Assembly (NCBI GenBank): GCA_003285105.1
Contig: CP030158.1
Span: forward strand, 3,674,449 to 3,706,448
DNA: 32,000 bases
Origin: Roseithermus sacchariphilus
GTDB lineage: Bacteria; Bacteroidota; Rhodothermia; Rhodothermales; MEBIC09517
Direction of reading: 5' to 3'
Both the position numbers and the translations under genes were made by a program. Positions 23,286 to 32,000 of this stretch are shown piece after piece (the stretch's first letter is position 1; each line of letters starts with the position of its first letter). Under the pieces are notes generated by a model. The model was not told the DNA's origin, searched no databases, and worked only from the letters and a program-made list of their open reading frames with translations.

Positions 23286-23505
23286 ACCGGAGCGGGCCGG
23301 CGTTGTAGAGGGCTGGTTCCTACCGGGTCTGGCAGTCCCTACAGTGATCCCGCGGAGGGAGGCCAGGGCCTGCCATCCCCGTTGTCCTCAGATGCCTTCG
23401 CATGCCGGGATCACCTGATTCCGCCTTATCGCAACAAAAAAGGCCACGAAAGGAACCCCGAAGAGGCAGCCAGCACCGGGCCACATCCTCTCTTACCCTC
23501 CCGGC

Positions 23506-24354
23506 TCAACGAATCATGAAGGAGACCGCCACCGGACTCCCGTTCTGCATCAAGGGCGGATCAGACGTCCCCGAGCCGCCGAACTCGAAGACCCCGATCT
23601 GGCCACTGTCTTCATGAAGCATGGCATAGAGCGTCGTGCCCGAAGCAACACCCGTTTCCAGCCCCACCGGAATGTTCCGGGTCTTCCCATGGCGTATGAA
23701 CGCTTTGCCCAGGATCACCGAAGGATCAGGCGTTCCGTTCTGCGTGGCCGGGTGAATAACGACCCAGGCATCCGAAGTTACCAGCACTTCGGACAACAAC
23801 ACCACCTCTCCCACTACGTCGCCTACCGTTAGCCCTGGAGCGCCGGGTACCTCTTCCGAGCCTCCATCGAGAGGTGGAACGGCCGGCGGAATCGGCTCCC
23901 TCTCATAATCGAGCTGCTCGAGATCGCCGATCAGGGCTTCCATCTCAGCAATCTCTCGGCGCTGAGCCAGAATGATGTCATCGGCAAGCCGGCGCACTCG
24001 TGGATCCGATATCTTTGCGCGTTCGCTCGTCAGGATCGCGATGGAATGGTGGGGAATCATAGCCTTCATCCAGTCAACGTCATCGACCGTATCCTGGCTC
24101 CGCGCAAGAAACAGCGCCCCCACCAGCACCAGCGCGCTTCCCGCGAAGACAGCAAGGTTCTTTTTGCGATCGGCATACATTTCTCGCATAAATCCGAGCA
24201 TGACTATCGCCATTGCGGATCCCATGTAAAGAGCCATCCAGAAGCGCGTCTCGCTCCACCAGACATGACTAAAACGATAGGCAGTGGAATACATCAAGAT
24301 GAACATCACCACGGTAGAGGTGGCGATCATGGCTATGAATCGCTTATAGGACAT
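23506..24354 (-). CDS. Membrane protein: 3 TM helices + DUF305-like helical segment + C-terminal beta-rich domain (DUF7282-like by eye)
   Basis: ORF 23506..24369; the likely ATG is at 24354 (MSYKRFIAMIATSTVVMFILMY...). The DUF305-type motif is WMKAMIPHHSIAILTSERAKISDPRVRRLADDIILAQRREIAEMEALI. The C-terminal ~108 aa (nt 23509-23832) read AWVVIHPATQNGTPDPSVILGKAFIRHGKTRNIPVGLETGVASGTTLYAMLHEDSGQIGVFEFGGSGTSDPPLMQNGSPVAVSF. Confidence 0.72.
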   Translation of the reverse strand: MSYKRFIAMIATSTVVMFILMYSTAYRFSHVWWSETRFWMALYMGSAMAIVMLGFMREMYADRKKNLAVFAGSALVLVGALFLARSQDTVDDVDWMKAMIPHHSIAILTSERAKISDPRVRRLADDIILAQRREIAEMEALIGDLEQLDYEREPIPPAVPPLDGGSEEVPGAPGLTVGDVVGEVVLLSEVLVTSDAWVVIHPATQNGTPDPSVILGKAFIRHGKTRNIPVGLETGVASGTTLYAMLHEDSGQIGVFEFGGSGTSDPPLMQNGSPVAVSFMIR

Positions 24355-24684
24355 AGGTCGTTCACGCAAAGATATGATCGAAGTACGGGTTACATCTCAA
24401 TACGAGATCGACCAGAAAAAAGGATAACAGGATGGCTTCACCGCGTAAAGAACACACACTGCGAAGCCTGTTCTCCCCTCACGACTTCCGGCCTCTATCG
24501 GCATGAACTGACACAAACGAAATTACAAGGATAGAACCTTAAACTCCTTTCAGGTCACGCAACTGTTACGGCATCTTCAAAAGGATGCGTGGTATGGTAT
24601 GACACCTCCTTGCTCATGCTGCCTCCAGGCAGAACCTGTCAGGATAGGCCTCAAGGCGCCAGATAGCAGGCGTCGTCGCCATCC

Positions 24685-26124
24685 TTAACGATATGGAACT
24701 ACGACCGGCAGGCGAACCACGAAAAGGCTACCCCGAGACGGACCTTCGCTCCAGCCCTCTACGGTGCCACCATACATCTGCGTGATGGCCTGGACGATGG
24801 CCAGGCCCAGCCCACTACCGTGCCGTGCCTGCACCTCCGGCGTATCGGCCCGGTAAAACCGATCAAAGAGATGAGATTGCTGCTGGGCGTCGAATCCAAT
24901 CCCGGTATCCATCACCTCGATACGGGCCTCATTGCCGTCGTGCACCACTCTAACATGAATTCTTCCTCCAACCGGGGTATACTTGATGGCGTTGTCCAAC
25001 AGGTTGTCGACCACCTCTCCGATACGTCCACGATCGGCCTGAACGAAGACGCCTGGCGTCACGTCTATAGCCAGGTCAAGCCCCTCGCGAGCAGCCCGTC
25101 GCTGCATTCGACGAACATGTTCACTGACGACGTCTCCCAGGTCGATCGATTCGCGGGGTAATTCGTGTAATTGATCGACACGGGCGAGTTGCAACAACCC
25201 ACGAATCGTCCCCGTCATTTCTTCCACTTCTTCCATCATGGTCCGAAGCGTATCCCGGTACCCCTCCGGGGTGCGCTCGCGCCGCAGGGCAATCTCGATG
25301 CTGTTGCTCAGGGTAGTGAGTGGGGTTAGAAGTTCGTGTGCGGCATTGTCGGTGAAGCGTCGTTCCCGCTCGAAGGAGGCCTCGATGCGAGCAATCAAGG
25401 CGTTGAACGTCTCAGCCAGTTCGGTCAGTTCATCACGGACCTGAAAGCGGGTGGGCAAGCGGGCACTCAAGTTGGTCACCCGGATCTCATTGGCGGCTTC
25501 GGTAAGCGCCGCGACTGGTTGCAGTGCCCGGCGTGCCAGGAGGGACCCGCCCCAGATGGCCAGCAGGACACTCAGCACAATCCCCACAATCATTGCCAGA
25601 CGCAGCCTGTACAATTCCTGGTGTAGCGACCATTCGAACCCGGTCACCTCCAACCATCCCTGCAGGGCGTCCTCAGCGCTGAAGAGGGGCGTATACATCG
25701 AGCGCGCCGGCTTTCCTTCCCAGACCTGACTGACGGAGGCGGCCACGGTGTCTCCGGGAATGCGCACCTTGAGCGGGCTGTGTTCTGCAAAATTCGGGCT
25801 CTTGTAGAGCACAAGCCCGTCTGGAGTGAGCAGCCGCACGTAGGTACCAAAGACGCCATCGGTTTCATAGGCCACAGAGCGCAGTTCATCCAGCGAGCTA
25901 AAGGCAGGGCTACCCCCCGCAAACTGGACGTAAGGCATGAGTTGTCGCGTCTCGTGGCTCAGGTGCCTATCAAAATCGCGATGCAGACTGGCATGGAAGA
26001 AGAGATAACAGAACAGGGCAAACAGGCTCAACAGAATGAGGAGCGTGAGCCCATACCACATAGTCAGGCGCGTGGAGATACGCAAGTGCATAGAAGCAGG
26101 CATCGGGTATTGACGCTGCATCAC
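24685..26124 (-). CDS. Sensor histidine kinase, CusS/CopS-like heavy-metal sensor type
   Basis: 479-aa ORF. Two TM helices flank a ~120-aa periplasmic domain. HAMP region: LLARRALQPVAALTEAANEIRV...LTELAETFNALIARIE. H-box: RRFTDNAAHELLTPLT. HATPase motifs: DNLLDNAIKYTP, DTGIGF, GSGLGLAIV. The start is GTG 26124 or ATG 26121, overlapping the response-regulator stop by 4 nt or 1 nt. Confidence 0.88.
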   Translation of the reverse strand: MMQRQYPMPASMHLRISTRLTMWYGLTLLILLSLFALFCYLFFHASLHRDFDRHLSHETRQLMPYVQFAGGSPAFSSLDELRSVAYETDGVFGTYVRLLTPDGLVLYKSPNFAEHSPLKVRIPGDTVAASVSQVWEGKPARSMYTPLFSAEDALQGWLEVTGFEWSLHQELYRLRLAMIVGIVLSVLLAIWGGSLLARRALQPVAALTEAANEIRVTNLSARLPTRFQVRDELTELAETFNALIARIEASFERERRFTDNAAHELLTPLTTLSNSIEIALRRERTPEGYRDTLRTMMEEVEEMTGTIRGLLQLARVDQLHELPRESIDLGDVVSEHVRRMQRRAAREGLDLAIDVTPGVFVQADRGRIGEVVDNLLDNAIKYTPVGGRIHVRVVHDGNEARIEVMDTGIGFDAQQQSHLFDRFYRADTPEVQARHGSGLGLAIVQAITQMYGGTVEGWSEGPSRGSLFVVRLPVVVPYR

Positions 26125-26843
26125 GTGGCGTCATGAAGCAGATCCGGGGCCCCCTCTACCACCAGACGATACCCGACGCCCCTGACCGTTTCGATACGAA
26201 CGGCATGGGCCTCAGGGGTACCCGGCTGGACGTCCGCCAGTTTCTGCCTGAGTCCGAAGATGGTCACATCCATCACGTTGTCGGTCACACAAAACGGATC
26301 CCCCCAGACACGCTCCGCCAGCACCGTGCGCGAGATAACCTCGTCTGGATGGCGCATGAAATCTTCGAGTAAGGCAAATTCCTTGGGGCGAAGGTCCAAC
26401 CGGGCACCGTCGAAGGTGGCTTGCCGACGTCTGGTATTCACCTCGAGTAGACCCAGTTGCAGCACCTCCTGCTGCGTTGCCAGCGGGGGACGCCGCAGGA
26501 GAGCCCGGAGCCGAGCCAGCAGTTCTTCGAATTTAAAGGGCTTGGGCAAGTAATCGTCGGCACCGGCATCGAGTCCTGACACTCTATGCTCTACGTCGCT
26601 CAGCGCCGTGAGCATCAAGATCGGCATTTCCCGACCGGCGGCTCGCAAGTTCTCGACGACGGTTTTCCCATCCCGACGAGGAAGACGCCAGTCTACGATC
26701 AGCACATCGTAGGCGTTGGCCAGAGCCCTCAATTCTCCCTCTTCCCCATCTCCCGCCACATCGACGGTGTACCCTTCTTCCTCCAGACCAGTCTGGAGAG
26801 ACCTGGCCAGTCGGACTTCATCTTCGATGAGCAACAGCCACAT
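26121..26843 (-). CDS. OmpR/PhoB-family response regulator, CusR/CopR-like
   Basis: 240-aa ORF: MWLLLIEDEVRLARSLQTGLEEEGYTVDVAGDGEEG...YDVLIVDWRLPRRDG...PILMLTALSDVEHRVSGLDAGADDYLPKPFKFEELLARLRALLRR. The winged-helix output domain reads LRPKEFALLEDFMRHPDEVISRTVLAERVWG...TVRGVGYRL. Confidence 0.9.
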   Translation of the reverse strand: MWLLLIEDEVRLARSLQTGLEEEGYTVDVAGDGEEGELRALANAYDVLIVDWRLPRRDGKTVVENLRAAGREMPILMLTALSDVEHRVSGLDAGADDYLPKPFKFEELLARLRALLRRPPLATQQEVLQLGLLEVNTRRRQATFDGARLDLRPKEFALLEDFMRHPDEVISRTVLAERVWGDPFCVTDNVMDVTIFGLRQKLADVQPGTPEAHAVRIETVRGVGYRLVVEGAPDLLHDAT

Positions 26844-26899
26844 GGACAGAGCAGAAGCGATTGAAGTTGTAGTGCGAAGTGTCTACCCGGTGACCACAC

Positions 26900-26931
26900 A
26901 AAGTTTCGCACCTTAATAAAGTTTAAGCACC
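26900..26931. promoter_or_regulatory. Imperfect direct repeat AAAGTTTCGCACC / AAAGTTTAAGCACC enclosing the dyad CTTAA-N6-TTAAG (26912-26927); candidate autoregulatory site upstream of the response-regulator gene
   Basis: Read directly. It lies 57-88 nt upstream of the response-regulator ATG (26843, minus strand). TTAA cores start at 26913 and 26923, a 10-bp spacing. The functional role is inferred. Confidence 0.35.
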
Positions 26932-26993
26932 CCGATGAACGCCGTGGCTCCCCAGAAACACCCTGTCGATCTGAGCAAAACATTCAGAACGGA

Positions 26994-27021
26994 CTTAACG
27001 GATTTTAAGGAGCCCTTAAGC
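26994..27021. promoter_or_regulatory. Three helically phased TTAA(C/G) boxes (starts 26995, 27005, 27016), including the dyad CTTAA-N6-TTAAG and CCTTAAGC; candidate OmpR-family response-regulator binding site
   Basis: Read directly: aCTTAACggattTTAAGgagccCTTAAGCtagc. OmpR/PhoB-family regulators bind direct repeats spaced by about one helical turn, which is established. Binding by this regulator is inference. Confidence 0.35.
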
Positions 27022-27348
27022 TAGCATTCAGGCGTCCGTTCCGGTCTTGTGAGCCGAAGAAGGGATTCGGTTGATTCCCGCCCGTCACAGAGACATCCTT
27101 GCAACCCATGCAAAACCGCATGACCCACCATGACGTGGTTCATCATTGCAATGACATTATGGGTGGTGTTCCTGCTCGTTTGCTAGATCGTGCTCGACGC
27201 TGGCCTGCTTCCATCACGTCGGCCTGATGCAGACGCTGACGGGAGGACAGGCACCAGCAACACCACGACTCCAACGATGCAACCTCCAGCTCCACCACGC
27301 TAACGACGGGTTTAAATGATACCACTAACCATCCGAATGAGGTATTCC

Positions 27349-28092
27349 ATGACTACCAGACCATCGTCTACCACGAGGCAGGCAGGGGCATGGTTGATGG
27401 CCACGTTGCTGATGCTATGCGTCGGCACACGTCCGGCAGTCGCCCAGCACCAGATCCATCACCCAGACCGGTCCGCCGCTGAACAGGCCGATACGACCCA
27501 CGGCATGATGAGCCTGAGGCAGGGGGGCATGATGCAGGACCCGATGACAGGCATGATGCCGCAGCACATGCAGATGATGCAGCTTCATGTGCAAATGACG
27601 CTGGATATCATGCAGGATCCGCTACGCCGATCGACCTTGATCGTCTACGTGTTACCGACTCTGCAAGAGCCGCTCGCCCTGACAGACGAGCAGGTGAACG
27701 AACTCAAGCAACTGACACAGCAGTTCAAAAAGCAGACAATGGCGCACCAGGAGCAGATGAAGCAGGCAACTGCACAGCTCAAGGAGATCCTGGCCCCGGG
27801 CGACGCCGCGCCGGAGCGGGTCCGGGAACAGCTTGAAGAAACCGCCCGGCACCGTGCCCGGATGCAGGCCCTTGCCTACGAGACTGCCGTGAAGATGAAG
27901 GGCGTGCTCACCGCCGAGCAGCGGGCGGCGCTCGCCGAGATGAAACCCATGCAATTGCACCACCACATGATGAGGAACATGACCATGATGGAAATGATGC
28001 AGGCCATGCAGCCCGGTATGATGTCCTGTGGGATGATGCAGGGCGGTATGATGGGGATGAAGAAGAATACAGCCGGCTCCGGAGCCGGCTGA
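27349..28092 (+). CDS. Periplasmic Spy/CpxP/ZraP-like (LTXXQ) protein with Met/His-rich N- and C-terminal tracts; putative copper-binding chaperone
   Basis: ORF 27316..28092; the likely ATG is at 27349, preceded by GAGG (MTTRPSSTTRQAGAWLMATLLMLCVGTRPAVA|QHQ signal peptide). Two LTXXQ motifs are present (LALTDEQVNELKQL, GVLTAEQRAALAEM) in a helical core. The flanks are HGMMSLRQGGMMQDPMTGMMPQHMQMMQLHVQM and MQLHHHMMRNMTMMEMMQAMQPGMMSCGMMQGGMMGM. Confidence 0.75.
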   Translation: MTTRPSSTTRQAGAWLMATLLMLCVGTRPAVAQHQIHHPDRSAAEQADTTHGMMSLRQGGMMQDPMTGMMPQHMQMMQLHVQMTLDIMQDPLRRSTLIVYVLPTLQEPLALTDEQVNELKQLTQQFKKQTMAHQEQMKQATAQLKEILAPGDAAPERVREQLEETARHRARMQALAYETAVKMKGVLTAEQRAALAEMKPMQLHHHMMRNMTMMEMMQAMQPGMMSCGMMQGGMMGMKKNTAGSGAG

Positions 28093-28130
28093 AGACATCC
28101 CCAGATCTCGTCCTTAAGCAGGCGGGTCGC

Positions 28131-28163
28131 GCCATACTAAAGCCATACTAAAGCCATACTAAA
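28131..28163. repeat. Perfect tandem repeat, 3 x 11 bp (GCCATACTAAA)
   Basis: Read directly: copies at 28131-28141, 28142-28152 and 28153-28163. They lie in the 98-bp spacer between the Spy-like gene stop (28092) and the SHOCT gene start (28191). A second copy of the octamer CCTTAAGC sits 12 nt upstream at 28112-28119. Confidence 0.95.
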
Positions 28164-28190
28164 AAGGAATCAGAAATACGAAGCAGAATC

Positions 28191-28418
28191 ATGTTCGACG
28201 AATATCATAACATGTGGGGCATGCACTGGGGATGGTGGGTCTTCTGGATCGCCTTCATCCTCGTTGTCGTGATGCTGTACTGGCGTGGCCGGACGGAGCC
28301 CACGACCTCCACCCGGGAAACGCCCCTGGAGATGCTCCAGCGGCGCTATGCGGCCGGAGAGATCACAACCGAAGAGTATGAGGAACGCAAGAAGCGCCTG
28401 GAGCGCGACCGGCTTTAA
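28191..28418 (+). CDS. SHOCT-domain small membrane protein
   Basis: 75-aa ORF. It has one Trp-rich TM helix (WGWWVFWIAFILVVVMLYW) and a C-terminal SHOCT-type motif, LEMLQRRYAAGEITTEEYEERKKRLE. Confidence 0.7.
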   Translation: MFDEYHNMWGMHWGWWVFWIAFILVVVMLYWRGRTEPTTSTRETPLEMLQRRYAAGEITTEEYEERKKRLERDRL

Positions 28419-28471
28419 CCTTTTTAGAAGCTACCCAGACTCACCCATCCTCTTTCGTACCCGACCGGCAC

Positions 28472-29548
28472 ATGATTCCTCTGCCCGAGTGGGCGCCTAA
28501 CGTCCACCCCCTCATCGTCCATTTCCCCATCGCGCTGCTGGCAACGGCCGCGCTCGTGGACCTTTTCTCGCTCTTTACCCGCAAGTGGCAGGGCACGCGC
28601 ATTGCGGCTGCGGTGCTCTACGCACTCGGTGCGGTGGGCACGCTGGCGGCCTACCTCTCCGGGCAGGATGCCGCCGACGGGCTGAATCTTCCGGCCACGG
28701 TCATCCCGCATGTGACCGACCATGCCGACTGGGCCGAACGCACCCTCTGGTATTTCGGGATCTATGCCGTGGTGCGTCTCTTCGTGCTCTGGTTTGAGCT
28801 CAAGGGCAGGCGCTGGACGCAGGGATGGATGCGCGTGTTGCTCTTTCTCGTCGGTGCCGGCGGCTACTACCTGGTGATGCAAACCGGCGACCACGGGGCA
28901 AAGCTCGTCTACGCCTACGGCGCCGGCGTGCAGCCGATCATGGATCAAATAACGAACCAGCCGGCCCGACGCGAGCCGGTTGCGCCCGGCCAGGTCGCAC
29001 GCGTGCAGGTCCAGGAAGATGGCTCCTGGTACCTGGTTGTCGGCGCGGGTGCGCGCCAGGTGCATCCGCAAGACCTGCGCTTCGTGCTGGGCGGCTTCGA
29101 AGACCTGCTCGTCGAGGCGGCCGAGACAGACACGGCCCTCACCGTGCAGCTTCAAGGAGGTCCCGTGCTGTTTACTGCCGGGGGGCCCATCGGCAGCGTG
29201 CAGGCCGAGGCTACACTAAACCTCGCGTTGTTCGACGGCACCCTGCGCCTCGTGCATCACGTGCAGGATGCACAGAATTATGATTTTCTGGAAGTTGCCA
29301 GCGGCCGAATGCGACAGGGCCGCGTACAGAGTGGCAGTGTTGAAATCTTCGATGACAAGCCCTTCCAAGCCCAGGATTGGATCAACCTTCAAGCCGTCAG
29401 CGACGGTACGCACTTCCGGGGATATGCCGCTGGCGAAATGCTCACGCACGGCCATGGAAACGTCCCACGGCCAGGTGCCGTGGGCCTCTACCTCGACGGT
29501 ACTGGCACGGTGCTCTTGCGGCGCCTGGCGGCCTCCTCGCTACGATAA
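28472..29548 (+). CDS. DUF2231-type 4-TM membrane protein fused to an unassigned ~190-aa beta-rich domain
   Basis: 358-aa ORF. The N-terminus, NVHPLIVHFPIALLATAALVDLF, matches the DUF2231 signature (HP.lVHFPIal), and three further TM helices end near aa 138. The C-terminal domain (nt ~28979-29545) contains WYLVVG...FEDLLVEA...LRLVHHVQDAQNYDFLEV...GSVEIFDDKPFQAQDWINLQAVSDGTHFRGYAAGEMLTHGHG...GAVGLYLDGTGTVLLRRL. By eye this resembles a LamG/DUF1080-like jelly-roll, but the call is weak. Confidence 0.68.
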   Translation: MIPLPEWAPNVHPLIVHFPIALLATAALVDLFSLFTRKWQGTRIAAAVLYALGAVGTLAAYLSGQDAADGLNLPATVIPHVTDHADWAERTLWYFGIYAVVRLFVLWFELKGRRWTQGWMRVLLFLVGAGGYYLVMQTGDHGAKLVYAYGAGVQPIMDQITNQPARREPVAPGQVARVQVQEDGSWYLVVGAGARQVHPQDLRFVLGGFEDLLVEAAETDTALTVQLQGGPVLFTAGGPIGSVQAEATLNLALFDGTLRLVHHVQDAQNYDFLEVASGRMRQGRVQSGSVEIFDDKPFQAQDWINLQAVSDGTHFRGYAAGEMLTHGHGNVPRPGAVGLYLDGTGTVLLRRLAASSLR

Positions 29549-29576
29549 CCCGAACGTTCCACGCCCTCCTGATTCC

Positions 29577-30086
29577 ATGATCGCCACTCGCCTTCTCGCT
29601 GCCACGTTACTCCTCTGCTTACCTGGTCTGGCCGCCTGCACCGCTGATGAGCCACCCGTTGCCATGCCCGACCCGCAAGTGGCTCCCGCCCGCGCGAATG
29701 ATGCTCATGCGGCCGTTGAAACGGTGCTCGAACGCCAGGAACAGGCCATCCGGGAAGCCGACATGGCGGCGCTCGACGCGCTCTGGTCCGGCAGCGAAGG
29801 CGTCTACGTCTTCGAGCAAGGCGGGGTGGACAGTTCCTGGGCTGCCTACCGGGATCACCATCTCGGGCCGGAGCTTGAGGCACTCGAAGACCTCGACTTC
29901 CGGCACGAGGACGTCCGCATCCGCGCCAGCGGCGACCTGGCCGTGGCAACGGGGCGCTACGTCCTGACAGCCCACCACGACGGGCAGGACATCGAGAGCC
30001 GGGGCGTCTTCACCACCGCCCTGGAGCGCGAGGCGGGCACCTGGAAGATCGTCCACTCGCACCTGAGCCGCCGTCCGCGCCGGTAG
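29577..30086 (+). CDS. SnoaL/DUF4440-like (NTF2-fold) lipoprotein
   Basis: ORF 29268..30086 overlaps the previous gene. An in-frame ATG at 29577 gives MIATRLLAATLLLCLPGLAAC (lipobox LAA|C). The mature part, AVETVLERQEQAIREADMAALDALWSGSEGVYVFEQGG...GDLAVATGRYVLTAHHDGQDIESRGVFTTALEREAGTWKIVHSHLS, is the typical NTF2-like/DUF4440 pattern. Confidence 0.65.
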   Translation: MIATRLLAATLLLCLPGLAACTADEPPVAMPDPQVAPARANDAHAAVETVLERQEQAIREADMAALDALWSGSEGVYVFEQGGVDSSWAAYRDHHLGPELEALEDLDFRHEDVRIRASGDLAVATGRYVLTAHHDGQDIESRGVFTTALEREAGTWKIVHSHLSRRPRR

Positions 30087-30100
30087 CCGTTGAAAAAAAT

Positions 30101-30136
30101 ACAGGCGTAGACCGATGGAAAGTCTGCGCCGCCTGT
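30101..30136. terminator. Stem-loop (ACAGGCG-TAGAC...GTCTG-bulge-CGCCTGT) between the SnoaL-like gene and copA, with an A7 tract on its left
   Basis: Read directly. 30101-30107 pairs with 30130-30136, and 30108-30112 pairs with 30122-30126 (one G-U pair), leaving a 3-nt bulge and a 9-nt loop. A7 lies at 30093-30099 and only a weak T-run (ctgttt) is on the right. The U-tract geometry therefore fits minus-strand termination better than plus-strand termination, so the role is unclear. Confidence 0.3.
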
Positions 30137-30170
30137 CTGTTTACCTGACCCGATTGTTTTCCAACTTGCT

Positions 30171-32000
30171 ATGCCCATGGATCGCCGCACGTTCATCCGT
30201 TCCTCTGCCGCGCTGGGCCTGCTCGCCGGCATGCAGTCCCTCGCTCCTGCCTGGGCCCGCAGCACACCCACCAATCCCATCCGCTCGCCAGCCCTGGAGC
30301 CGACCCGCCGCGCCGGACGCCTGGTGGAATACGACCTCACCATCGACCGCACACCGTTAACCTTCGGCGGCAAAACGGGCCGCGCCGTGACGATCAACGG
30401 CACCGTACCGGGCCCACTCCTTCGATTCACCGAGGGCGACGAGGCTATCATCCGTGTACATAATCGGCTGCATGAAGACACGTCGATCCACTGGCACGGC
30501 ATATTACTCCCCAATGCGATGGACGGAGTGCCCGGAGTCAACTTCCCCGGCATCAAAGCGCGCTCCACGTTCGAGTACCGCTTTCCCATTCAGCAGTATG
30601 GGACGTACTGGTACCACAGCCACTCTGCCTTTCAGGAACAACTCGGCCATTACGGCCCGCTCGTGATCGACCCTGCCGGAGGCGATCCCTATACTTATGA
30701 CCGTGAATATGTCGTCGTACTCTCAGACTGGACATTCGAAGATCCCCACGACGTACTGGACAACCTCAAAAATCGTCCAAATTACTACAACTTTCAGCGA
30801 CAGACACTCTTCGGTCTTCTGCGCGGAGAAGATATGCGACTCCAGGACCGGCTTGCCTGGAGTCGCATGCGCATGGATCCCACAGACATTTCTGACATCA
30901 CCGGAGCCACCTACACCTATCTCATGAACGGCCAGGCTCCAGACCCAGGCTGGTTCGGGCGGTTCCAGCCCGGGGAGCGCGTCCATCTTCGCTTTATCAA
31001 CGCCAGCGCGGGCACCTTCTACGACGTACGTATCCCCGGTCTACCGCTCACGGTCGTCCAGGCCAGCGGGCAACACATCGAGCCGGTCGTGGTCGATGAG
31101 TTTCGCATTGGGATCGCCGAGACGTACGATGTGATCGTCGAGCCCAAGGATCAGGCCTACACAGTCTTTGCCGAGTCGATGGACCGCTCGGGCTATGCCC
31201 GCGGCACACTCGCGCCACGCCCTGGTATGACCGCCCCGGTGCCATCCCGCCGGAAGCGCCCGCTTTTGACGATGATGGACATGGGAATGGCGCACGGCGG
31301 CTCCGGGATGGACCACGCCATGATGAAGCAGGGGGAAGTGCCAGTGCATCACGGGAGCAGGAACCACGGTGCGATGGAGAAACGCGCAAGGGACGCCTCC
31401 TCCGACACCACGGCGGCTATGCATGGCCATTCAATGCACGATCCGCACGCCGGACACGGGATGACCGGCATGGCCGACATGCCAGGCGCTGCCCCCACGA
31501 GGCTGCGCCCTCCCGGCACGCTCCCCGAACCGGTACCTCACGGCTCCGACGGCCATGGCCCGGCCAACGCCATGGCACCGGACGTCACGCGCAGCCGACT
31601 TCACGAGCCCGGAGTGGGCCTGGAGGACGTGCCGCACCGCGTACTCGTCTACACGGACCTGCGTGCGCTTCATCCAGAGCCTCGTCGCGCCCCCGACCGC
31701 GAAATCGAGCTCCACCTGACAGGCAACATGGAGCGCTACATGTGGTCAATCAACGGCAAGACGTACGCGGAAGACCCACTCATCCCGATGACGCTGGGCG
31801 AGCGCCTCCGGCTCACAATGGTCAACGACACCATGATGAACCACCCGATGCACCTACACGGCATGTGGATGGAGCTTGAGAACGGCCATGGCGAACGCAT
31901 CCCCCGGGTCCACACGGTCATCGTCAAGCCGGCCGAGCGGCTTTCGGTGCTCATCGAGGTCGACGCGCTCGGCCCGTGGGCCTTCCATTGCCACGTGCTC
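30171..32000 (+). CDS. copA: Multicopper oxidase CopA/PcoA (copper resistance protein A), Tat-exported; continues beyond the right window edge
   Basis: Not in the supplied ORF track because it is edge-truncated. My translation from ATG 30171 is open for all 610 codons. The twin-arginine signal is MPMDRRTFIRSSAALGLLAG. Copper-site motifs: SIHWHGILLP (HWHG at 30489-30500), YGTYWYHSHS, HPMHLHGMWM, WAFHCHVL. There is an internal Met/His-rich insert. Confidence 0.92.
   Translation, partial: MPMDRRTFIRSSAALGLLAGMQSLAPAWARSTPTNPIRSPALEPTRRAGRLVEYDLTIDRTPLTFGGKTGRAVTINGTVPGPLLRFTEGDEAIIRVHNRLHEDTSIHWHGILLPNAMDGVPGVNFPGIKARSTFEYRFPIQQYGTYWYHSHSAFQEQLGHYGPLVIDPAGGDPYTYDREYVVVLSDWTFEDPHDVLDNLKNRPNYYNFQRQTLFGLLRGEDMRLQDRLAWSRMRMDPTDISDITGATYTYLMNGQAPDPGWFGRFQPGERVHLRFINASAGTFYDVRIPGLPLTVVQASGQHIEPVVVDEFRIGIAETYDVIVEPKDQAYTVFAESMDRSGYARGTLAPRPGMTAPVPSRRKRPLLTMMDMGMAHGGSGMDHAMMKQGEVPVHHGSRNHGAMEKRARDASSDTTAAMHGHSMHDPHAGHGMTGMADMPGAAPTRLRPPGTLPEPVPHGSDGHGPANAMAPDVTRSRLHEPGVGLEDVPHRVLVYTDLRALHPEPRRAPDREIELHLTGNMERYMWSINGKTYAEDPLIPMTLGERLRLTMVNDTMMNHPMHLHGMWMELENGHGERIPRVHTVIVKPAERLSVLIEVDALGPWAFHCHVL
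31272..31481 (+). other. Met/His-rich insert of CopA
   Basis: MMDMGMAHGGSGMDHAMMKQGEVPVHHGSRNHGAMEKRARDASSDTTAAMHGHSMHDPHAGHGMTGMADM. Methionine-rich loops are a known feature of CopA/PcoA/CueO-type periplasmic copper oxidases. Confidence 0.8.

Follow-up and report, generated by a model that had tools for sequence, protein, structure and literature searches.

Several periplasmic helical proteins offer points of comparison for copper handling in the bacterial envelope. ZraP of E. coli and Salmonella is a periplasmic protein that consists of an LTXXQ-type helical core with short His/Gly/Met tails, is encoded divergently from a two-component system, and according to a passage of PMC8836040 that cites Petit-Hartlein 2015 was reported to have a higher affinity for Cu(II) than for Zn(II). 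CnrX and NccX of Cupriavidus are periplasmic metal sensors of extracytoplasmic function (ECF) sigma systems, which bind metal through His, Met and Glu residues of their helices, and a copper-bound form has been solved (3epv). In addition, CopM, a periplasmic Cu(I) binder under the control of CopRS, gives resistance on its own (PMC4335983), and CueO uses its Met-rich domain to recruit Cu(I) (PMC11494321). Here we analyze a stretch of 32,000 nucleotides from Roseithermus sacchariphilus (contig CP030158.1, positions 3,674,449 to 3,706,448; hereafter the window), in which a Met/His-rich, predicted secreted protein (hereafter the Met-rich protein) is encoded divergently from a CusRS/CopRS-like two-component system. 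The central features are as follows.

24685–26124, minus strand: sensor histidine kinase, CusS/CopS-like, 479 aa, with HAMP, HisKA and HATPase_c domains
26121–26843, minus strand: response regulator, CusR/CopR-like, 240 aa, with Pfam domains Response_reg and Trans_reg_C
26912–26927, no strand assigned: dyad 1, CTTAA-N6-TTAAG, candidate regulator box, 69 nt from the regulator start codon
26994–27009, no strand assigned: dyad 2, CTTAA-N6-TTAAG, 82 nt from dyad 1, toward the Met-rich gene
27349–28092, plus strand: Met/His-rich predicted secreted protein with a CpxP/Spy/CnrX-like core, in an open reading frame (ORF) open from 27316 (258 codons)

We propose, with moderate confidence, that the Met-rich protein is induced by the regulator and serves in the periplasm as a Cu(I) buffer or chaperone. 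An earlier note on this DNA had described the three ORFs of the kinase, the regulator and the Met-rich protein, and all three were found where it had placed them. For the last of these, we took the ATG at 27349 rather than position 27316 as the likely start codon, because the homologues begin at this codon and the database copy is 247 aa long. The Met/His tracts and the two motifs LTDEQ (residues 122–126) and LTAEQ (residues 198–202), likewise described before, are all present. Methionine makes up 15.3% of the mature protein, compared to an average of 3.1% in six proteins encoded nearby, and is distributed unevenly, with 17% in the N-terminal flank, 5% in the core and 33% in the C-terminal flank. 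The sequence contains nine MxxM, nine MxxxM and eight HxxM/MxxH motifs. Alignment of the homologues revealed that the Met/His tracts keep their positions across 18 homologous clusters, and therefore they are no chance low-complexity run; in the C-terminal block H-H-H-M-M-x-N-M-T-M-M-E-M-M, the Met and His residues are invariant across the homologues. By inspection, the protein begins with what looks like a Sec signal peptide, whose last residues are AVA before QHQ, and the pattern P-A-x-A-Q-H at its end is nearly invariant in the family, suggesting that the protein would be exported to the periplasm via Sec.

Single-sequence Pfam search with the Met-rich protein gave LTXXQ (PF07813) at 21.6 bits (E 3.7e-4; gathering threshold 24.3) and Metal_resist (PF13801) at 20.4 bits (E 6.1e-4; gathering threshold 29.2). 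The Pfam check that the earlier note had called for is thus answered by the family and not by the single sequence: the protein itself scores below both thresholds, but 60 of 107 relatives match LTXXQ and 44 match Metal_resist (E ≤ 1e-3), with a best E-value of about 1e-10. Comparison of a 19-sequence family with the single E. coli sequences of ZraP, CpxP and Spy by hhalign gave E-values from 5e-4, for ZraP, to 1.3e-3, with a probability of only 18–31%, so that a wider profile of 107 sequences was needed. Searched against the PDB, this profile matches STV (7.9e-7), NccX (3.1e-6), CpxP (2.1e-5), Spy (3.2e-5) and CnrX (5.7e-5), together with a weak match to the solved ZraP (E 0.011). The alignments to the solved members cover the whole fold, and the two LTXXQ motifs are in register with those of CpxP and Spy.

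An AlphaFold (AF2) model of the Met-rich protein, built from the 19-sequence alignment with a mean predicted local distance difference test score (pLDDT) of 76, is all-helical. The pLDDT is 85–98 over residues 80–230, a confident span that takes in the Met-rich helices 77–115 and 211–231, and reaches 93–98 in the two hairpin helices 124–159 and 166–197, whereas residues 38–74 and the last ~25 residues are of low confidence. Structural similarity search using Foldseek gave template-modelling scores of 0.66–0.73 for CnrX structures (probability 0.97–1.0), ~0.7 for ZraP and 0.53 for CpxP, with STV also among the best meaningful matches. As the family profile matches the solved members and the predicted fold agrees, the Met-rich protein is placed in the CpxP/Spy/CnrX/ZraP superfamily as a predicted branch with added Met/His helices, an assignment that holds at the family level. 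Profile, fold and the Pfam matches of the relatives all agree with the Spy/CpxP-like core proposed earlier. By contrast, neither Pfam nor NCBIfam gave the protein a match to the PcoE/SilE or CopM (DUF305) families.

The regulator and kinase genes overlap by 4 nt. The kinase has two predicted transmembrane segments that flank a periplasmic domain of ~130 aa, followed by the HAMP, HisKA and HATPase_c domains, and the domain composition of its partner defines a regulator of the OmpR/PhoB type rather than the NtrC type. The best NCBIfam models belong to heavy-metal subfamilies and align at full length, TIGR01386 for the kinase at 239.3 bits, below the cut-off of 292.55, and TIGR01387 for the regulator at 202.5 bits, below the cut-off of 279.2. 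Sequence identity to the E. coli proteins is 45% for the regulator against CusR and 30% for the kinase against CusS. The OmpR-type, CusRS-like pair proposed in the earlier note is therefore retained, with the name serving as a best-hit and context label instead of a curated assignment, since both models score under their curated cut-offs.

The intergenic region between the regulator gene and the 258-codon ORF spans 472 nt and contains both CTTAA-N6-TTAAG dyads. Two exact copies occur in the window where none are expected, and a search of the whole 4.8-Mb genome found just these two. The dyad is also found in the orthologous intergenic regions of three relatives (L002, L003 and L006), and with one mismatch in those of two more (L004 and L007). 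As regards a shared operator, copper genes adjoin divergently, and the dyad is found nowhere else in the genome and is conserved at the orthologous positions; CTTAA-N6-TTAAG is likely the binding site of the regulator, and we treat it as a candidate on this sequence evidence. In Rhodocaloribacter relatives, a second exact dyad is seen (L003, 9745–9760; L006, 8454–8469). These second dyads precede further copper sub-operons, one with an ICMT-like protein and a P-type ATPase (L003) and one with DUF4198 (L006), so that the regulon appears to reach beyond the divergent promoter.

The Met-rich gene is the first full-length gene of a plus-strand string that continues with genes for SHOCT, DUF2231, SnoaL lipoprotein, CopA and CopB. 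These neighbors, together with the smaller elements around the Met-rich gene and a copper gene on the other side of the kinase, are listed below.

23506–24369, minus strand: membrane-anchored DUF305 (CopM-like) and DUF7282 protein, downstream of the kinase on the same strand
24538–24553, no strand assigned: one-mismatch dyad CTTAA-N6-TTCAG, ~170 nt upstream of the DUF305/DUF7282 gene
27130–27186, plus strand: small hydrophobic ORF of 18 codons, stopped by an in-frame TAG at 27184–27186, in a frame open to ~27303
28070–28091, plus strand: GC-rich perfect hairpin/palindrome with a 9-bp stem and a 4-nt loop, covering the final codons of the Met-rich gene
28191–28418, plus strand: small SHOCT-domain protein with a single transmembrane segment, identified by Pfam SHOCT and alignment
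28472–29548, plus strand: DUF2231 membrane protein with a C-terminal extension, also found downstream in L002, L003, L006, L007 and L013
29580–30086, plus strand: SnoaL/DUF4440-like protein, probable lipoprotein, with an inferred start in an ORF open from 29268
30171–32000, plus strand, running past the window end: CopA-type multicopper oxidase with a Tat-like signal (TIGR01480, 746 bits, above the cut-off)

Beyond the window, CopA is followed by CopB, DUF302, a second multicopper oxidase and then the haem genes hemF and hemH (L011). The copper link drawn in the earlier note is in line with these surroundings, as the genes around the Met-rich gene are copper genes (CopA, CopB and DUF305/CopM-like). 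The copper reading thus stands on the conserved Met/His flanks and on the neighbors CopA, CopB and DUF305/CopM-like, or DUF411 or a P-type ATPase in relatives. We infer copper binding, induction by the regulator and co-transcription of the string from sequence, and envisage the following course. The divergent CusRS/CopRS-like pair would sense periplasmic copper, upon which the phosphorylated regulator would bind both dyads and switch on the string. The Met-rich protein would then bind several Cu(I) ions, and possibly Ag(I), via thioether and imidazole ligands on its added helices and tails, and would in this way buffer periplasmic copper. Other possible roles are delivery of copper to the oxidase or exporters and protection of unfolded envelope proteins. 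The one-mismatch dyad at 24538–24553, which shares its variant form with the boxes of L004 and L007, suggests that the regulon also includes the DUF305/DUF7282 gene, and it is weaker evidence than dyads 1 and 2.

Several observations weigh against the proposed Cu(I) buffer or chaperone. Both Pfam scores of the protein itself are under their gathering thresholds, every Foldseek E-value exceeds 0.1, and the signal peptide was called by eye. The dyads lie 320–400 nt upstream of the start codon of the Met-rich gene, which implies a long leader, and a scan of the intergenic region for sigma-70 promoters and intrinsic terminators gave nothing useful and identified no promoter; other promoter types may operate in this phylum. 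Moreover, relatives of the Met-rich protein at three loci (L017, L018 and L051) are found in other contexts, without obvious copper genes.

Synteny was assessed at 20 loci, and a related-locus search with the 19-sequence alignment yielded 8 loci. The kinase-regulator pair is divergent from the Met-rich gene in nine loci (the window, L002, L003, L004, L006, L007, L015, L016 and G408). A sister genus, represented by four genomes (L053–L056), has copA instead in the position divergent from the same regulator pair, with the Met-rich gene ~4.5 kb downstream, behind copB, DUF411 and an AhpC/TSA protein; a similar distance of ~4.7 kb separates it from the pair in L059. In L052, its neighbors are copA-copB-cytochrome c on one side and a P-type ATPase on the other, and a regulator pair is absent within 6 kb. 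Furthermore, two genomes that are 98–100% complete (G392 and G418) encode a kinase orthologue at 53–58% identity and no Met-rich protein, and the near-complete G116 encodes the Met-rich protein (E 5e-41) and no kinase orthologue. The most constant neighbor is the SHOCT gene, which directly follows the Met-rich gene in 14 of the 19 loci where this adjacency could be assessed.

The earlier note had read the locus as zraP and its regulators re-invented for copper. The divergent arrangement, recurring in nine loci, and the ZraP-like core with tails support the comparison, but the Met-rich gene is not solitary, copper genes follow it, copA takes the divergent place in the sister genus, and kinase and protein are separable. 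A solitary zraP-like module was rejected on synteny and because either of the two, kinase or Met-rich protein, can be present in a genome that lacks its partner. Given the varied gene order and this separate occurrence, the sequence comparisons indicate that the layout is the ordinary design of a metal two-component system facing its target operon, as in cusRS and cusCFBA, with the Met-rich gene as one movable member of the regulon.

The ancestry of the fold raises the question of whether the Met-rich protein acts on the kinase. In a feedback role like that of ZraP, CpxP or CnrX, the copper-loaded or apo protein would dock on the periplasmic domain of the CusS-like kinase and tune its signaling, perhaps with the SHOCT protein, which would be compatible with buffering. 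The signaling accessories CpxP, ZraP and CnrX/NccX belong to the same superfamily, the gene is divergent from the regulator pair in the nine loci, and in the closest relatives the kinase, the regulator, the Met-rich protein and the SHOCT protein stay together while the downstream effectors vary. Against these points stand the ~4.5 kb gap behind copA-copB in the four sister-genus genomes, the absence of a regulator pair within 6 kb in L052, and the three genomes that have one partner without the other (G392, G418 and G116). As the kinase and the Met-rich protein each occur without the other, feedback cannot be obligatory, and we consider it rather unlikely. A further proposal, which we regard as speculative and improbable, joins the Met-rich protein and the SHOCT membrane protein into a two-part copper relay or sensor: the former would capture Cu(I) and dock on the H-x-M-W-G-M-H-W motif of the latter, whose cytoplasmic SHOCT domain would signal to the CusS-like kinase or another partner. 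If true, the pair would amount to a transmembrane device of the CnrX-CnrY kind, adapted to copper and working without an ECF sigma factor.

The matches to Spy also allow an ATP-independent chaperone for envelope proteins damaged by copper or oxidants, in which the Met flanks would be client-binding surfaces or repairable oxidant sinks instead of a copper store. The profile matches Spy over the whole fold (E 3.2e-5), the NCBI label on relatives is "Spy/CpxP family protein refolding chaperone", a gene for a thiol-disulfide oxidoreductase of the AhpC/TSA type occurs in the sister-genus cluster, and Spy methionines are oxidized and then repaired by MsrPQ (PMC12503329). However, in the present protein Met is paired with His at spacings typical of Cu(I)/Ag(I) sites, the surroundings are specific to copper and not to general stress, and much of the Met-rich sequence is modelled as confident helices rather than floppy tails, so that a Spy-like role of this kind has in our view a low probability. 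Less probable still is that another metal (Zn, Ni/Co or Cd) is sensed and bound, after the example of ZraP and CnrX/NccX. In favor of this, both profile and fold put the Ni/Co sensors NccX and CnrX nearest among the solved relatives, and the subthreshold scores of the kinase and regulator against the heavy-metal models do not establish a metal specificity. Nevertheless, CopA, CopB and the second multicopper oxidase are encoded co-directionally, the cluster contains no czc or cnr genes, and thioether-rich motifs favor soft Cu(I)/Ag(I) over Zn or Ni in general coordination chemistry.

The family to which this presumptive Cu(I) buffer or chaperone belongs extends well beyond the window. The core profile matches 2,420 representative proteins at E ≤ 1e-3 and 141 clusters at E ≤ 1e-10, most of them Met-rich, and the top 147 representative matches have a median of 13.3% Met. 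The matches include a gammaproteobacterial metagenome-assembled genome (MAG) and a Polyangiaceae MAG, and the relatives carry the public names "hypothetical protein" or "Spy/CpxP family protein refolding chaperone". A literature search for Met-rich CpxP/LTXXQ/Metal_resist copper proteins, and for SHOCT in connection with copper, found no characterized example. The view of the earlier note that the combination is uncharacterized is accordingly upheld in that no paper on such a protein was found, but the protein is not unique, as the 141 clusters demonstrate; the Met-rich subfamily is widespread and unstudied, and is not a new kind of system. If confirmed, it would represent a fourth use of the CpxP/Spy/ZraP/CnrX fold, in which a copper-specific periplasmic binder or chaperone is made by grafting Met/His helices onto the hairpin, and would define an unstudied subfamily in Rhodothermia, other Bacteroidota, some Proteobacteria and many metagenomes. 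Apart from this, the regulon at this locus is compact and its predicted operator is unique in the genome, and a SHOCT membrane protein with a CusF-like His/Met/Trp motif stands out as a recurrent partner. Current views of copper homeostasis would not be overturned.

The smaller elements around the Met-rich gene were also compared among relatives. The conserved small ORF with a single transmembrane segment, located between the dyads and the Met-rich gene, is truncated in the window, and relatives have an intact single-transmembrane peptide of ~48–69 aa at the same place upstream of the Met-rich gene (~60 aa in strain RA, 48 aa in L003 and 69 aa in L006). Codon 19 is TAG in the window versus TGG in strain RA, which may reflect a recent nonsense mutation or an error in sequencing, and the N-terminal pattern M-x-W-F ... 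L-D is common to L002, L003 and L006. A His/Cys-rich leader ORF of 39–42 codons (27099/27108–27227) was rejected, as its frame is not conserved and the conserved frame is that of the small ORF from 27130. Rfam search over 24300–28500 for a known RNA element in the leader gave no match at E ≤ 1. The hairpin at 28070–28091 has no T-run on the plus (coding) strand; it could act as a transcript stabilizer or partial terminator, setting the level of the Met-rich gene above that of the downstream genes.

Further downstream, a perfect tandem of three 11-bp units (GCCATACTAAA) lies at 28131–28163, upstream of the SHOCT gene. The idea of an operator array was rejected, because only one unit is present in strain RA, with CCTCAAGC in place of CCTTAAGC; the tandem thus represents a duplication specific to the strain and is not conserved as an array. 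The N-terminus of the SHOCT protein, predicted to face the periplasm, has the nearly invariant sequence H-x-M-W-G-M-H-W-G-W-W, which in its His/Met/Trp composition resembles the Cu(I) site of CusF. The CopA oxidase has a long Met/His-rich insert of its own (about residues 365–440 of the ORF), as in other CopA/PcoA-type oxidases. The G+C content of ~0.70 drops to 0.54–0.65 over a block of ~11.5 kb that holds all the copper genes (window 23500–32000 and L011 1–3400) and is flanked by RNase R and hemF; in strain RA this block is likewise present, with the same genes on either side. A phage origin was rejected, as PHROG gave no match.

Compared to the systems introduced above, the locus combines features of each. 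E. coli ZraP, with its short His/Gly/Met tails, gives the Met/His-flanked design a precedent and makes the analogy apt at the protein level. The two proteins and their settings differ in other respects: ZraP is solitary, has 141 aa and one LTXXQ motif, and is controlled by an NtrC-type (sigma-54 dependent) regulator, whereas here an OmpR-type regulator faces a protein with two motifs and much longer Met-rich helices, and copper genes follow on the same strand. E. coli CpxP and Spy align in fold with their LTXXQ motifs in register, and cpxP is also divergent from cpxRA. However, these alignments cover the core of the Met-rich protein and not its flanks, and CpxP and Spy respond to general envelope stress, outside metal-resistance operons. 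To our knowledge, Met/His-rich flanks are not found in CpxP or Spy. CnrX and NccX provide the best structural matches and strong profile matches; nevertheless, CnrX is membrane-anchored, senses Ni/Co and signals via the anti-sigma factor CnrY to CnrH, whereas no ECF sigma gene is present here and the signal peptide looks cleavable.

Outside the superfamily, PcoE/SilE, CusF and the Met-rich domains of CueO/CopA resemble the Met-rich protein in the capture of Cu(I)/Ag(I) by MxxM/HxxM motifs in the periplasm and in control of the CusRS/PcoRS type. They have no sequence relationship to it, as Pfam found LTXXQ and Metal_resist only; in addition, SilE and PcoE are disordered without metal, and CusF is a β-barrel. 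By analogy, the closest functional precedent is CopM of the Synechocystis copMRS system, a helical Met/His-containing periplasmic Cu(I) binder that is encoded beside CopRS and induced by it (PMC4335983), despite its unrelated DUF305 fold. As a DUF305 protein is encoded by a separate gene at 23506–24369, the locus holds both types.

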